Shown: positions 34,749 to 45,580 of the stretch, one piece after another
Numbering within the stretch: the stretch's first letter is position 1
Layout of the letters: every line of letters begins with the position of its first letter
Assembly: GCA_934182615.1 (NCBI GenBank)
Contig: CAKPRO010000001.1
Span: forward strand, 78,197-142,196
Length of the DNA: 64,000 bases
DNA from: an uncultured Bacilli bacterium
Lineage (GTDB): Bacteria > Bacillota_I > Bacilli_A > RF39 > UBA660
Direction of reading: 5' to 3'
Program-made: the position numbers and the translations under genes
The notes under the pieces: model-generated
Databases searched by the model: none
Seen by the model: only the letters and a program-made list of their open reading frames with translations
Told to the model about the DNA's origin: nothing

Positions 34749-35177
34749 TCATTTTTTTCTCTTTTTTTTAAAAAAATCAGATAATATTTCAGAGCATTTA
34801 TTGCTTTTAATATAATTCAAAGAAACATATGGCTCTACAGTTGTTTTATTGTACATTTGTATGCCTTGTCTGATAGTGCCATAATAAATATTTTTAATTC
34901 TACTCTCCATAATAGCTCCAACACACATCATACAAGGCTCTAAAGTAACATATAAAGAGCAGTCATCTAACCTCCAACTCCCCAATTTTCGACACGCTCT
35001 GCTGATAGCCACTATCTCAGCATGCATTATAGCATCATTTTCCCTCTCTTTTTCATTGTATCCACAGGCGATGAGCTCATTTCCTCGAAATATGGCACAA
35101 CCAACAGGTATTTCATCCAAATTATAAGCAATTTTAGCTTGCTCAAAAGCCACTTCTAATTTATCAACATCCATCAT
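34749..35177 (-). CDS. tadA: tRNA-specific adenosine deaminase
   Basis: HAE and PC..C CMP/dCMP deaminase zinc motifs (HAEIVAI, EPCMMCVGA). Preferred start is the ATG at 35177, which has an AGAGGAGAAG RBS. The longer ORF to 35210 begins with MFHVEH, which is simply the parS palindrome read as codons. Confidence 0.85.
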   Translation of the reverse strand: MMDVDKLEVAFEQAKIAYNLDEIPVGCAIFRGNELIACGYNEKERENDAIMHAEIVAISRACRKLGSWRLDDCSLYVTLEPCMMCVGAIMESRIKNIYYGTIRQGIQMYNKTTVEPYVSLNYIKSNKCSEILSDFFKKKRKK

Positions 35178-35203
35178 AATATCTTCTCCTCTATGTTCCA
35201 CGT

Positions 35204-35968
35204 GGAACATAAAAAAATATTATCATAGTAATTATCAAATTTCAAAATATTATATTTTAAATTAAACAAAACATTTAAAAATCTCATGTTCCACGTGAAA
35301 CATTGATTGTTTTTTTATAATTAAATTTATTATTAATAATCATTAACAACAAAAATATAATAATAAAAGAATATAATTCAAAGATTACAAAAAAAATATA
35401 AATAGCTTTTTAAAATAAATAAAAATTGTTGATGAATTCATGTTCCACGTGAAACATTAAAATAATCATTTATCTAAAGCAAGTTATTATTAATTTCAAA
35501 TATACAAAAAATAATAATTAAAACATATAAAAATAAAATACGTAATAATTTAATTTGAAAATTATATAGGAAAAAGCTGTTGATAATCTATGTTCCACGT
35601 GAAACATAGAATTTACTTTCAAATTTTATTTAATATTTAATACATAAAACATTTCTAATCAACATAGTATTAAAAATTATTTCTATTAAATAATTTTTTT
35701 TATGGCTAATTTAATATATTTTTTACATATATTAATTAACTGTTGATAACCAATGTTCCACGTGGAACATGAGTTATTATTTTATAATTAAATTTGTTAT
35801 TAATAATCATTAATGAATAAAATACAATAATAAATATATATAATTCAAAAATCACATAACAAATATAAACGACTTTTAAAAATAAATAAAAAATTGTTGA
35901 TAACCAATGTTCCACGTGGAACATGAAGTTAGTTATCTAATTATTATTGCTATGTTTCACGTGAAACA
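35204..35968. repeat. Tandem array of seven parS (ParB/Spo0J centromere) sites, ~150-bp period, each unit with a DnaA-box-like TTATCAACA
   Basis: 16-mers at 35204-35219, 35287-35302, 35441-35456, 35591-35606, 35754-35769, 35908-35923, 35953-35968. Three are TGTTCCACGTGAAACA (exact B. subtilis consensus), three are the symmetric TGTTCCACGTGGAACA, one is fully palindromic TGTTTCACGTGAAACA. Spacers are paralogous AT-rich ~130-bp units ending in TGTTGATAA(CC). Confidence 0.8.
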
Positions 35969-36007
35969 TAGTATAATTTTAAATCTAATTTATCAACAGG
36001 CATAAAA

Positions 36008-36086
36008 AAAGATACACACACTAAATAAATGTTAAAGCTGCTGACTTCCGTCCCTGACTTGGTTCCATCATTTAATGTTGTATCAA
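36008..36086 (-). ncRNA. ffs: Small (4.5S-type) signal recognition particle RNA
   Basis: Minus strand contains CCAAGUCAGGGACGGAAGUCAGCAGC, matching the conserved SRP domain IV (AGGUCAGGUCCGGAAGGAAGCAGC). 5' and 3' ends can pair; a U-run lies at 36001-36010. A perfect promoter sits upstream. Confidence 0.6.
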
Positions 36087-36091
36087 CAAGT

Positions 36092-36354: not shown

Positions 36355-38883
36355 CTATTCACTTTCCTTTTCGATATTTTCACCATTAATATTATCATCA
36401 CTAACTTCTTCTCTATCAACAATAGAAGTAGAACTAACAATACTATCTTCTTTTAAATTAATAAGTTTAACACCTTGAGTAACTCTACTCATAGTAGAAA
36501 TCTTATCAACAGCCAATCTAATAATAATACCAGAATCAGTAATAATCATTAAGTCTTTACTATCATCAACTGTCTTAAATGACACAATAGAACCATTCTT
36601 TTCAGTAATATTAACAGTCTTAACACCTTTACCACCACGATTAGTAATTCTATATTCATCAACAGGTGTCTTCTTACCATAACCCTTTTCAGTAATAACA
36701 AGTACATACTCATTAGGTTCAACAATTTCCATACCAACAAGTATACCACCATCAAGATTAATACCTCTAACACCAGAAGCACTTCTACCCATAATTCTAA
36801 CAGCATCTTCATTAAATCTAACCATTCTACCATTAGAAGAAGCCATTAATATCTCATCATTGCCAGTAGTTTTCTTAACAGATACAAGTTCATCATCATC
36901 TTTTAAAGTAATAAACTTCTTACCATTATTCCTAATACTATCAAATTCAGATATATCAGTCCTTTTAATTAAACCACTTTTAGTAGCAAATACCAAACAC
37001 TTGTATTCATCATTATTAGATATCTTCAATAAAGAAGTAACCTTTTCATCTTTATCTAAAGATAATAAATTAATAATAGGTAATCCTTTAGATTGTCTAC
37101 TGTACTCAGGAATCTCATAACCCTTAATTCTATATACTTTACCCTTATTAGTAAACATAAGAATATAATCATGACTAGTCGCATTAATCAAATGCTCTAC
37201 AAAATCCTCTTCATTAGTAGCCATACCTTTAACACCCATACCACCTCTATTTTGAGTTTTATAAGTATCAGCAGGTAATCTCTTAATATAACCCTTATTA
37301 GTTAAAGTAATAACAACATTCTCAACAGGAATCAAAGATTCATCTTCAATATAATCAATAGCAGTCATATCAATATGTGTTCTTCTCTCATCAGCATATT
37401 TATCTTTAATTTCAAGCATTTCAGTCTTAATAACCTCAAGAATCTTCTCTTCACTAGCTAATATTTCTTCTAATTCCTTAACTAATTTTTCAAGTTCAGC
37501 AATCTCTTCTTCAATCTTAGATTTTTCAAGTCCAGTAAGTCTCTTCAATCTCATATCAAGAATAGCTTGAGATTGAACCTCTGATAAAGCAAAATTAGAC
37601 ATAAGTCCAGCTTTAGCCTCATCGTCATCAGCAGACTCTCTAATAATCTTAATAACTCTATCAATATTATCAAGAGCAATCTTTAAACCATCTAATATAT
37701 GTAATCTATCCTTATATCTCTTTAAATCAAATTGACATCTACGATAAATAACATGTTTCTGATGATCAATATACTTCTCAATAATCTCTCTTAAACCAAG
37801 TGTTCTAGGACTTCCATCCACAAGCATTAAGAAATTAATACCATAAGAAGTCTGAAGTTGCGTATGCTTATATAAGTTATTTAAAACAACATTAGCATTA
37901 GCCTCTTTCTTAACATCAATAACAATCTTAATACCCTCTAAAGCCGATTCATCACTTAAATTAGAAATACCATCAATAACCTTATCTCTAACAAGTTCAC
38001 CAATTCTTTGAATCAAAGCCTTCTTATTAACCTGATATGGAAGCTCTGTAATAACGATTCTGTGCTTATTATGAGTCTCTTCTACAGTAGCCATACCTCT
38101 AATAGTAATAGCTCCTCTACCGCTCTCATATGCCCTTTTAATGCCACTATTACCAAGAATAACACCAGCAGTAGGAAAATCAGGTCCCTTAATATATTGC
38201 ATAAGTTCAGTAACAGTAATCTCTGGATTATCAATATAAGCAACACATCCATCAATAACTTCACCTAAATTATGTGGTGGAATATTAGTAGCCATACCAA
38301 CAGCAATACCCATATTACCATTAACTAATATATTAGGAAATCTACTAGGTAATACAACAGGCTCTTTTCTCTGACCATCATAATTCTCCGAAAAATCAAC
38401 AGTATCCTTATTTAAATCTCTTAAAAGTTCCATCGATATCTTAGCAAGTCTAGCCTCAGTATAACGACTAGCAGCTGCTCCATCACCATCAATAGAACCA
38501 AAATTACCATGTCCATCAACAAGTGTATGTCGATAAGTAAAGTCTTGAGCCATTCTAACCATAGATTCATAAATAGCAGAATCACCATGTGGATGATAAT
38601 GACCCATAACAGCACCAACAGCATTAGCAGATTTCTGATATTTCTTATCAGGAGTCATACCCTCTTCATATAAAGTATATAAAATTCTTCTATGAACAGG
38701 CTTAAGACCATCTCTAACATCAGGAAGAGCTCTAGCAACAATAACACTCATTGAATAATCAAGGAAAGACTTCCTCATTTCACCAACAATATTAACTGCT
38801 ACTTTTCTATCTCTCTCATGATTATTATCTTCACCCATATCTTCTATATTCAAATTTTTATCTACATTCTTATCTTCCATCAT
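36355..38883 (-). CDS. gyrA: DNA gyrase subunit A
   Basis: 842 aa with the active-site Tyr region, a QRDR-like segment and C-terminal beta-pinwheel repeats. Confidence 0.97.
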
Positions 38884-42053: not shown

Positions 42054-42509
42054 TTATTTTTCAACGGTTTTTCTCATAATTCCATTTAAATATTTTTCTA
42101 TCTTTATACACTTCGTAATTTGATTATCAATCGTAGTATAAGGTACCTTAATATTCATCTCTTTACCATTATCAAAATATATTTTTGTACCATTACTTTC
42201 TTTAACATATCTAGTAATATTATTATAAGCAAGCCATATACATTTCTTAGAACTAGGAGTACATGTAGGAAAGAAAATAATCATATTATAAGAAGATACA
42301 ATAATAGGAGTCTTAATATAATAATTAAAAATATCAATAACAAATTGCCTCTGAATATTATAAGAATTACCATAAAAATTACACCCATATTTAAGTAATT
42401 TAAGACAATCAATACTCAAATAAAAATCCTTATTCTTCTCCACAACATAAGTACCATATCCATTAGAAGTAAAGCACAAAACATCATCAGTAAGAATATA
42501 ATTTCTCAT
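42054..42509 (-). CDS. comK: ComK family protein (competence transcription factor family)
   Basis: Alignable to B. subtilis ComK across the conserved core: CNFYGNSY / CRFFGSSY; KTPIIVSSYNMIIFFPT / KPPIMVDPSNQIFLFPT; FDNGKEMNIKVPY / FSNGKTMELPISY. The start is assigned to the ATG at 42509, which has a GGAGAGGGGGA RBS. Confidence 0.7.
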   Translation of the reverse strand: MRNYILTDDVLCFTSNGYGTYVVEKNKDFYLSIDCLKLLKYGCNFYGNSYNIQRQFVIDIFNYYIKTPIIVSSYNMIIFFPTCTPSSKKCIWLAYNNITRYVKESNGTKIYFDNGKEMNIKVPYTTIDNQITKCIKIEKYLNGIMRKTVEK

Positions 42510-42707
42510 AAAATCCCCCTCTCCACATATAAAAATATGTACCATGTATTAAAGCATATAATCATGTCGAATTTTATCAAAATATGTCGTAAATTATCAA
42601 AAATTTTCCTTTTCTTAACATTTCTATCATCAAAATTACTGTTTTATCACAAAAAAAATAGATAAAAGAATCAAATCCCTTATCTATTAAACAAATATAA
42701 ATCAAAA

Positions 42708-43832: not shown

Positions 43833-43974
43833 CCTCTTTCTTTTATTATTTATTTATTATATTATTATTATTATGCTGTGGATATTGTGGAAAACTCACC
43901 TTTACCCTTGTTTTATATACTTTTACTTATCCACAATACCTGTTGATAACTTCAAACTTTTCCACTATCAACAA
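43833..43974. other. oriC part 2 (dnaA-dnaN spacer): DnaA-box cluster plus AT-rich unwinding element
   Basis: Perfect TTATCCACA at 43927-43935. Variants: ATATCCACA (43878-43886, reverse), TTTTCCACA (43887-43895, reverse), TTATCAACA (43941-43949, reverse), CTATCAACA (43965-43973). A pure A/T run at 43840-43875 lies next to the dnaN start. Confidence 0.8.
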
Positions 43975-45345
43975 CTATATTCTCTTTTTTAACTCCTCAA
44001 TTACTGTTTGTAACTGATAATTTGTCTCTAAATCTTTCTCTATTTTTTGATATGCACTTATTATTGTTGAGTGGTCTCTACCTCCAAAGTAAGTTCCCAT
44101 CTTTGGATATGACTCATTTGTCATTATTCTACACAAGTATATAGCTATTTGCCGCTGATAGTTTATATCCTTACTTCTTTTTTTACCTTTTAAATCTTCA
44201 ATATCTATCTTAAAGTACTCACAGACAATTCTCTGAATCCTATGAATATCATTTTTATATACACTACGTTCACTAATTTTATCTTTTAAAGCCTCAATAG
44301 CAATATCTAAAGTAACAACTCCATGATTCATCATTAGTGCATAAGCAAAAACCCTTGTAATTGCTCCTTCTAACTGTCTAACATCGGAATCATTAATATT
44401 AGCAATATACTCAATGACTTCAATCGGAATATCTTCCGCTGCCTCCTGATGAGATATCTTCCTTTTAATAATATCTACTCTCAGTCCAAAATCAGGTGGA
44501 GTGATATTAGCAGTAAGACCCCAATTAAACCTTGTAATAAGCCTATTTTCTAACATCTTTAAATCATCAACAGACCTGTCGGAAGCTATAATAATTTGTT
44601 TATTTGAGTCATGTAACTGATTAAAAGTATGGAAGAATTCTTCTTGTCCTTTAGTAGCGGACCCTAAAAATTGAATATCATCAATAATTAGAACATCAAT
44701 ATTCCTATACTTATTCTTAAAAGAATCAATCTTATCAAAACTATTCTTCTCATTATTTCTAACCGCCGCTATATAATCATTAACAAACTGTTCACTTGAC
44801 ACATACAAAACCTTCTTATTCGTATTTTGAATAATATAATTACCAATAGCATGCATTAAATGTGTTTTACCAAGTCCACTTTTACCATATAAAAATAAAG
44901 GATTATAAGCTTTACCAGGTTTTTCCGCCACCGCTCTAGCAGCAGTAAAAGCAAACCTATTCGAGTTACCTACAATAAAACTATCAAAAGTATATTCGCT
45001 ATTTAGATTAGCGGAAGCACTAGTTTGATGTGGAACTCCCATACTTTCATTAGAAGTACCAATAATAACCTCTTCATTATTATCACTAATTTCATTAATT
45101 TCGTTTTCTAAAATAAATTTAAAATTAAAATTTGTTCCCGTAATAGAATTAAAAGTTTCTTCAATATCATCAATATAATTTTCTTCTAAATGTTTTTTAT
45201 GTAAAGCTAAAGGAACGATAATAGTGGCAGTACCACCATCTAATTTATATAATTTAGTATCCTTAAACCAAGTATCATAAGATAAAGGAGTAATACGTTC
45301 TTTAATTTTATCAAGAAATTCATTCCATAAATTATCCGTATTCAT
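43975..45345 (-). CDS. dnaA: Chromosomal replication initiator protein DnaA
   Basis: 456 aa with an AAA+ domain (GKSGLGKTHLMHAIGN) and a C-terminal DnaA-box binding domain. Confidence 0.97.
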   Translation of the reverse strand: MNTDNLWNEFLDKIKERITPLSYDTWFKDTKLYKLDGGTATIIVPLALHKKHLEENYIDDIEETFNSITGTNFNFKFILENEINEISDNNEEVIIGTSNESMGVPHQTSASANLNSEYTFDSFIVGNSNRFAFTAARAVAEKPGKAYNPLFLYGKSGLGKTHLMHAIGNYIIQNTNKKVLYVSSEQFVNDYIAAVRNNEKNSFDKIDSFKNKYRNIDVLIIDDIQFLGSATKGQEEFFHTFNQLHDSNKQIIIASDRSVDDLKMLENRLITRFNWGLTANITPPDFGLRVDIIKRKISHQEAAEDIPIEVIEYIANINDSDVRQLEGAITRVFAYALMMNHGVVTLDIAIEALKDKISERSVYKNDIHRIQRIVCEYFKIDIEDLKGKKRSKDINYQRQIAIYLCRIMTNESYPKMGTYFGGRDHSTIISAYQKIEKDLETNYQLQTVIEELKKRI

Positions 45346-45439: not shown

Positions 45440-45580
45440 CAAGTTATCCACAACTTATCAACAATATAATACCATATAAAATAAGACTTTAAAAGACTTT
45501 TCCACAATTTTTGTCAATTTTTGTTGTCAACAGTCAACAGCTTTACTTTTCCACAGCCCTGTGGATATTGTGGATAAATA
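45440..45580. other. oriC part 1 (upstream of dnaA): DnaA-box cluster
   Basis: TTATCCACA at 45445-45453 and 45569-45577 (reverse); TTATCAACA at 45455-45463; TTTTCCACA at 45498-45506 and 45547-45555; ATATCCACA at 45560-45568 (reverse). Confidence 0.8.

Follow-up and report, generated by a model that had tools for sequence, protein, structure and literature searches.

A parS array with adjoining DnaA boxes, a candidate combined ParB/DnaA-box cluster in an uncultured human-gut Bacilli lineage

The way in which replication initiation and chromosome segregation are coordinated in bacteria is not yet settled, and the question is posed in a particular form by the parS array between ffs and tadA in a 64,000-nucleotide stretch of contig CAKPRO010000001.1 (the window), which stems from an uncultured human-gut Bacilli lineage whose identical TadA is found on many gut metagenome contigs: do the sites of the partition protein ParB and of the initiator DnaA form a joint element at this locus? 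The initial annotation had proposed that each parS unit is coupled to a DnaA-box-like sequence, resulting in a combined ParB/DnaA-box cluster. This observation proved to be real but overstated, i.e., it is partly confirmed, and its interpretation is partly supported. Comparison with related species strongly supports the reading of the partner motif as a DnaA box and of the locus as a combined ParB/DnaA-box cluster, and we put the probability at about 60% that a composite ParB-DnaA unit has been amplified here to form a centromere array on which DnaA is held as well. The pairing in related species suggests a built-in link between chromosome copying and partitioning.

The array (35194-35968, 775 bp) occupies the spacer (16% G+C) that separates ffs from tadA and comprises seven parS sites, 16-bp palindromes that match TGTTNCACGTGNAACA (0 expected), agree with the Firmicute-type consensus TGTTNCACGTGAAACA, and are the sole matches in 64 kb. 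Their start-to-start distances are 93, 154, 150, 163, 154, and 45 bp. Four of the seven sites (units 3 to 6) have an adjacent box. Read on the + strand, TGTTGATAA stands exactly 4 bp before the parS of units 4, 5, and 6, and TGTTGATGA stands 5 bp before that of unit 3. In terms of the - strand, composite unit 4 (35578-35606) consists of the box TTATCAACA at 35578-35586 and parS at 35591-35606, composite unit 5 (35741-35769) of the same box at 35741-35749 and parS at 35754-35769, and composite unit 6 (35895-35923) of the same box at 35895-35903 and parS at 35908-35923, with gaps of 4 bp throughout; composite unit 3 (35427-35456) combines the weak box TCATCAACA at 35427-35435 with parS at 35441-35456 across a gap of 5 bp. 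No adjacent box is present at unit 1 (35194-35209) and unit 2 (35287-35302), and none at 3 to 5 bp from unit 7 (TGTTTCACGTGAAACA, 35953-35968). Unit 1 has the putative promoter of tadA on one side and the ribosome-binding site of this gene on the other, a position that is conserved in relatives.

Two further copies of TTATCAACA frame the array on the + strand, i.e., inverted relative to the internal boxes. One of them (35990-35998) lies 21 bp past unit 7 and 4 bp past the 3' end of ffs, and the other (35161-35169) falls within codons 3 to 6 of tadA (D-V-D-K on the - strand). The region from 35161 to 35998 accordingly holds, within 838 bp and outside the dnaA flanks, five boxes with at most one mismatch and one with two mismatches: TTATCAACA, which occurs five times, differs at one position from TTATCCACA (TTATNCACA family), and the sixth box, TCATCAACA, differs at two. 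The positions that the initial annotation had given for the array, tadA, and the flanking and cluster copies are correct, but the coupling of each parS unit does not hold for units 1, 2, and 7.

Since the units are paralogous, as is evident from a 187-nt duplication within the array (79% identical), the window alone cannot distinguish selection from common descent, whereas cross-species data can. Syntenic gyrA-ffs-array-tadA-dnaX loci of relatives were picked by TadA similarity only; they are metagenome assemblies throughout, in which tandem repeats may be collapsed or chimeric. Six further genomes from species at 65 to 95% TadA identity share this synteny and contain 7 to 11 parS sites, and most of their internal units carry a 9-mer 3 to 5 bp after parS in a single orientation. 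The 9-mers of the relatives comprise TTATCAACA, TCATCCACA, CTATCCACA, CTATCAACA, TTTTCAACA, TTATTCACA, TTTTCCACA, TTGTCCACA, and perfect TTATCCACA. The perfect box occurs five times among the 9 units of locus L096, and conspecific strains of the window (L167, L200, and L218) have it in one unit.

When the seven related gut Bacilli genomes are pooled, a box with no more than two mismatches is present in 41 of 59 units 3 to 5 bp from parS with the TTAT end nearest to parS, compared with a mean of 0.32 over all other offsets and orientations. A GTDB scan with TadA alignment returned mostly distant taxa; only L011 and L012 were useful, and the remaining loci served as outgroup control. A box with at most one mismatch accompanies 27 of 52 parS sites of the clade, none of them inverted, and 0 of 73 parS sites of the outgroup (loci of Erysipelotrichaceae, Clostridia, and other Bacilli taken regardless of boxes). 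In a logo of 50 unique units, which were preselected at two or fewer mismatches that were free to fall at any position, T4, A7, and C8 of the box are invariant, C5 is present in 47/50, and position 6 is always either A (28 units) or C (22 units), in surroundings with a background of 9% C. The loci L131 and L122 of more distant lineages (same synteny, GyrA about 63% identical) contain the mirrored unit TGTGGATAA-N3/4-parS on the gyrA side, whose internal geometry is unchanged and whose orientation in the chromosome is opposite. Relative orientation and spacing are fixed and persist in units that are reversed in the chromosome, which speaks for a stereospecific pair and against a loose association of two sites.

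That the partner motif is a DnaA box is indicated by the range of its variants, by the perfect consensus of the sister species, and by the use of these variants next to dnaA. In this respect the proposal of a combined cluster gains from the relatives, which at the same spacing and relative orientation have the consensus TTATCCACA or the classic variants TTTTCCACA, TCATCCACA, and TTGTCCACA.

The frequency of the 9-mer in the window has to be read separately for coding and noncoding DNA. Dinucleotide shuffles predict 2.0 exact copies, compared with 15 found, but this figure is misleading: nine copies, including the one in tadA, are coding and all in the frame xxT-GTT-GAT-AAx (V-D-K/N), and synonymous-codon shuffles, in which 7.7 ± 2.0 coding copies are expected, account for their number. 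Window-wide enrichment was therefore rejected as evidence for the coding copies. The same applies to the tadA-internal copy, which the initial annotation had counted, and it is uncertain whether it is a functional box; in L096, a synonymous GTG turns this site into perfect TGTGGATAA. The six intergenic copies, in contrast, exceed the background (about 0.18 in 5.8 kb of noncoding DNA, our estimate from the base frequencies of the array units) and are confined to the array and two clusters flanking dnaA. One of these clusters lies between dnaA and dnaN (43877-43949; ATATCCACA, TTTTCCACA, TTATCCACA, and TTATCAACA), and the other upstream of dnaA (45444-45577) has six boxes with at most one mismatch, among them TTATCAACA (45455), which directly adjoins TTATCCACA (45444). 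The array variant TTATCAACA is thus present in both clusters (43941 and 45455), each time beside a perfect TTATCCACA.

This sharing of the variant had been noted before, but the designation of the two clusters as oriC and of the array as near the origin is less secure. The array is 8 to 10 kb away from dnaA and its flanking clusters, and there is no GC-skew switch at dnaA, at the array, or elsewhere in the 64 kb, where the + strand skew is negative throughout (-0.08 to -0.46). The genes to either side of dnaA are almost all located on the - strand, without a switch in gene orientation in the window or the additional 10 kb, which lie further upstream (L219) and contain co-oriented genes and no par genes. 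The true replication origin may be elsewhere than in the dnaA flanks.

In the proposed composite, the repeat unit would be made up of the 18-bp parS palindrome as the ParB loading site, a gap of 3 to 5 bp, and the 9-bp DnaA box TTATC[C/A]ACA with its TTAT end proximal to parS. ParB would nucleate at each parS, and domain IV of DnaA would occupy the neighboring box; with a gap this short, the sites are roughly 12 to 13 bp apart from center to center, so that the bound proteins would have to touch or else exclude or compete with each other. The array would keep a small pool of DnaA within the partition complex, and DnaA availability, and hence the control of initiation, would be coupled to the ParB/Soj centromere, corresponding to a DnaA-box cluster built into a centromere. 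The binding of both proteins, their interaction, and the direction of the effect are predictions from the arrangement of the sites. If DnaA binds, a sequestration or negative control of initiation might be envisaged by analogy with the DnaA-box clusters (DBCs) of Bacillus subtilis or with datA and tied to Spo0J/Soj, for which there is a precedent (PMC3245932); this role is tentative. A role of DnaA in centromere function as in Caulobacter, i.e., the licensing of segregation (PMC6399470), would be an analogous outcome that we consider doubtful, and that bound DnaA shapes the sliding of ParB clamps is rather unlikely. A stereospecific ParB-DnaA co-complex on parS-N3-5-TTATCMACA, in which the partition complex gates DnaA or DnaA gates ParB loading and which would constitute a module of several Firmicute lineages and perhaps beyond, is possible, if speculative.

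Several points weigh against the composite as a DnaA-holding centromere. The four to eight boxes at intervals of about 150 bp are far sparser than the clusters flanking dnaA and would be a small sink for DnaA. The unit counts represent non-independent events, given that the array is a product of tandem duplication and probably gene conversion, and the logo is affected by its preselection. Boxes are missing from the 9-parS array of L012, and L098 contains just one parS, so the boxes are an addition to the array and are required neither for it nor for the centromere of the clade. The ParB and Soj genes are located outside the window, and the window stems from a metagenome-assembled genome of uncultured gut Bacilli. 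Finally, the affinity of DnaA is not to be assumed, because the window species uses the one-mismatch box TTATCAACA together with a deviating recognition helix. The DnaA of the window (43975-45345, - strand) is full length and canonical overall and aligns over its entire length with that of B. subtilis (8BTG), but the recognition helix of its domain IV (43978-44268, - strand) reads GGRDHSTIISA versus GGRDHTTV(L/I)HA in Escherichia coli and B. subtilis; Aquifex likewise has DHTTV(L/I)HA. It is speculation that the DHSTIISA helix is linked to A being tolerated at position 6 of the box. The sister lineage L119 has the helix sequence DHSTVIHA.

Among the competing explanations, an architectural role survives best, although it is unlikely. 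DnaA bound 4 bp from parS would prevent CTP-ParB clamps from leaving on one side and, together with the inverted end boxes, keep ParB within the array or protect ffs and tadA-dnaX against ParB spreading. It is known that ParB clamps are halted by DNA-bound roadblocks, and such a function would be in agreement with the very short, fixed gap and with the inverted box at either end of the array, 21 to 24 bp outside the terminal parS. The box on the ffs side recurs in six relatives as TGTTGATA[AG] (L091, L092, L093, L095, L096, and L097), is absent in L012 and L098, and is replaced by CTATTGATGA in L094, whose array has boxes. However, the blocked side varies by lineage (facing tadA in the clade of the window and gyrA in L131 and L122), no gene or direction is protected consistently, a roadblock would not need a fixed box orientation, and no adjacent box is present at the terminal parS units closest to the genes.

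It is quite improbable that the box merely hitch-hikes, i.e., that an ancestral parS lay by chance beside a DnaA box and that the pair was tandemly amplified and homogenized by gene conversion with the box being functionless. The higher-order duplication in the window, the three identical 143-bp units of L092, the existence of box-free arrays such as that of L012, and the number of parS sites, which is 6, 7, or 8 among conspecific strains, are all in line with such a history. Homogenization does not explain why the box is retained while the flanks just outside the composite approach random identity: between units of the window, box plus parS are 94 to 96% identical compared with 43 to 48% for the 30-nt flanks, which taken by itself is suggestive, though not independent, evidence. 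Flanks contain about 0.1 bit per position and are unalignable. Across species the box varies only among DnaA-box variants, with position 6 toggling between C and A, in DNA of 16% G+C. The mirrored lineage has the same internal geometry, and single composites of this geometry are found in unrelated lineages, though the scan that retrieved them sought only that geometry.

A third explanation would leave DnaA aside and regard the 9-mer as an extended element of the ParB of this clade or as the site of another factor. The preference of the window species for TTATCAACA over the consensus and the tight spacing to parS, as for a single extended site, fit with it, but we hold it to be very improbable given the perfect DnaA consensus in sister species and a variant spectrum that fits DnaA boxes. 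Furthermore, both clusters flanking dnaA contain this 9-mer but no parS, the 9-mer is missing at three of the seven parS sites of the window and at all nine in L012, and the gap ranges from 3 to 5 bp. It is extremely unlikely that the array serves, in the manner of the Deinococcus cisII/cisMP repeats, as all or part of a replication origin, because, although it has DnaA boxes in very AT-rich DNA and Deinococcus arrays of iterons and DnaA boxes exert both functions (PMC7671480), a second origin at this position was rejected on skew, neither a compositional nor an orientation switch is present there or in the window, and the boxes are spaced about 150 bp apart in one orientation instead of being dense as beside dnaA.

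The composite ParB-DnaA unit, as the preferred reading, can be compared with several known systems. In B. subtilis, the link between replication and segregation is indirect and runs from Spo0J via Soj to DnaA. Deletion of the DBCs causes early initiation and acts synergistically with the loss of Spo0J (Okumura et al. 2012, PMC3245932). The array resembles the DBCs as a box cluster outside the dnaA-flanking region of a Bacilli chromosome, in a dnaA-proximal zone that also holds parS; in B. subtilis, however, DBCs and parS are separate loci and the boxes are densely clustered, whereas here the box is joined to parS at 3 to 5 bp in a fixed orientation, one per unit of about 150 bp. In Caulobacter crescentus, domain IV of DnaA binds boxes in the parS region, and the binding of DnaA-ATP at this site enables centromere translocation (PMC6399470, reviewing Mera, Kalogeraki & Shapiro 2014). 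The presence of DnaA boxes within the parS region is shared with this Alphaproteobacterium, for which a tandem one-to-one composite array is not described in the review, and the mechanism of its centromeric DnaA is not known.

In Deinococcus radiodurans, ParB-binding iterons and DnaA boxes are coupled per direct repeat in cisII/cisMP, and both proteins bind in vitro (Maurya & Misra 2020, PMC7671480); direct contacts between ParB and DnaA have been reported in Deinococcus and Vibrio, with no known significance (PMC7022226). Direct-repeat arrays pairing ParB sites with DnaA boxes are common to both cases. The Deinococcus elements have noncanonical, overlapping iterons and boxes, lie upstream of parAB on secondary replicons, a location that differs from that of the array, and act as an origin; here, parS sites and boxes are canonical and adjacent and are found on the dnaA-bearing chromosome, in the ffs-tadA spacer, and nothing points to origin function. 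In oriCII of Pseudomonas aeruginosa (PMC13438810) and in locus L123, a DnaA-box cluster adjoins the partition locus as well, but it is a neighbor of the parS sites or of the par promoter, and its boxes are not paired one-to-one with parS. A search of the literature revealed no description of one-to-one parS/DnaA-box composite arrays. A conserved natural element with a DnaA site fixed 3 to 5 bp from a ParB site represents a defined substrate on which cooperation, competition, or signaling between the two proteins can be examined, and as it is short (about 30 bp) and both sites are canonical, the question is accessible to in vitro work even though the organism is uncultured.

A metagenome scan for a parS half site followed at N3-5 by TTATCCACA (perfect box, one orientation) found the composite, among the matches listed, in many lineages including further gyrA-tadA arrays; about 40% of the matches are not full parS sites, and, as only this geometry was demanded, the scan is no measure of general enrichment or orientation preference. 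In L123 (4480-5760), from a Firmicute that is common in the gut (about 40% G+C), a 1.25-kb spacer upstream of parA-parB and away from dnaA contains four parS sites followed by the box cluster (TTATCCACA, TGTGGAAAA, ATATCCAC, TTATACACA, TGTGGATAA, and TGTTGATAA), the last parS having TTATCCACA 4 bp away. A conserved element TTTTCCACGTGGAACA-N4-5-TTATCCACA with variable flanks was seen in L099, L103, L105, L107, L126, L133, and others (56 to 61% G+C, mostly Ga-prefixed JGI environmental contigs); its palindrome is one base off parS, and in L103 an M50 peptidase and a polyprenyl synthase are encoded nearby. In L137 and L170 (36 to 38% G+C), a single perfect DnaA box is located between two parS sites (...GAAACA-attag-TTATCCACA-t-TTGTTCCACGTGGA).

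Turnover of parS is also apparent at short evolutionary distance. Among conspecific strains, the ffs-proximal half of the array (35750-35990) varies by gain, loss, or recombination of units (L001-L010, L167, L200, and L218), and the GTDB contig L011 stops inside the array, as expected if repeats break assemblies. One site is intact in L095 and decayed in L096 (TTTTTCATGTAAAATA), and another is intact with TTATCCACA in L096 and has a point change in L095 (…GAAACG); an alignment of these two loci for sequence constraint was uninformative, as the species are too close and their spacers are about 90% identical where aligned.

With respect to the genomic setting, the order on the - strand is dnaA, dnaN, a comK-like gene, recF, gyrB, gyrA (36355-38883), ffs, the 16% G+C spacer, tadA, dnaX, ybaB, and recR; parAB is absent from the 64-kb window, and neither rpmH nor parAB is adjacent to dnaA. 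The upstream boundary of the array is ffs, the gene of the small signal recognition particle RNA (36003-36089, - strand; Rfam RF00169, 53 bits), which is preceded by a promoter-like TTGACT-17-TATAAT (36120-36092). The downstream boundary is tadA, encoding a tRNA adenosine deaminase (34749-35177, - strand), with the putative promoter TTGAAA-17-TAATAT (35245-35217) and followed by dnaX. TTGATA was rejected as a -35 element, since no -10 is found at a usable distance and promoter-scan sites are no commoner than in shuffles. Many public gene calls lengthen TadA to 153 aa by starting at an ATG inside parS unit 1, and a parS shortly upstream of tadA is present in many Erysipelotrichaceae loci.

The sequence ATTTCCCGGGAAAT, which we take to be the consensus of the Noc-binding site of B. 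subtilis, has six perfect copies in the window (33518, 33575, 36235, 40834, 53713, and 56663), compared with 0.11 matches expected at up to two mismatches. One of them, in the interval from gyrA to the ffs promoter, is next to the array, and ATTTCCCGGGAAAT likewise adjoins the parS sites of the relatives L122 and L119. The ComK-family gene between dnaN and recF (42054-42545, - strand) is kept in all conspecific contigs.

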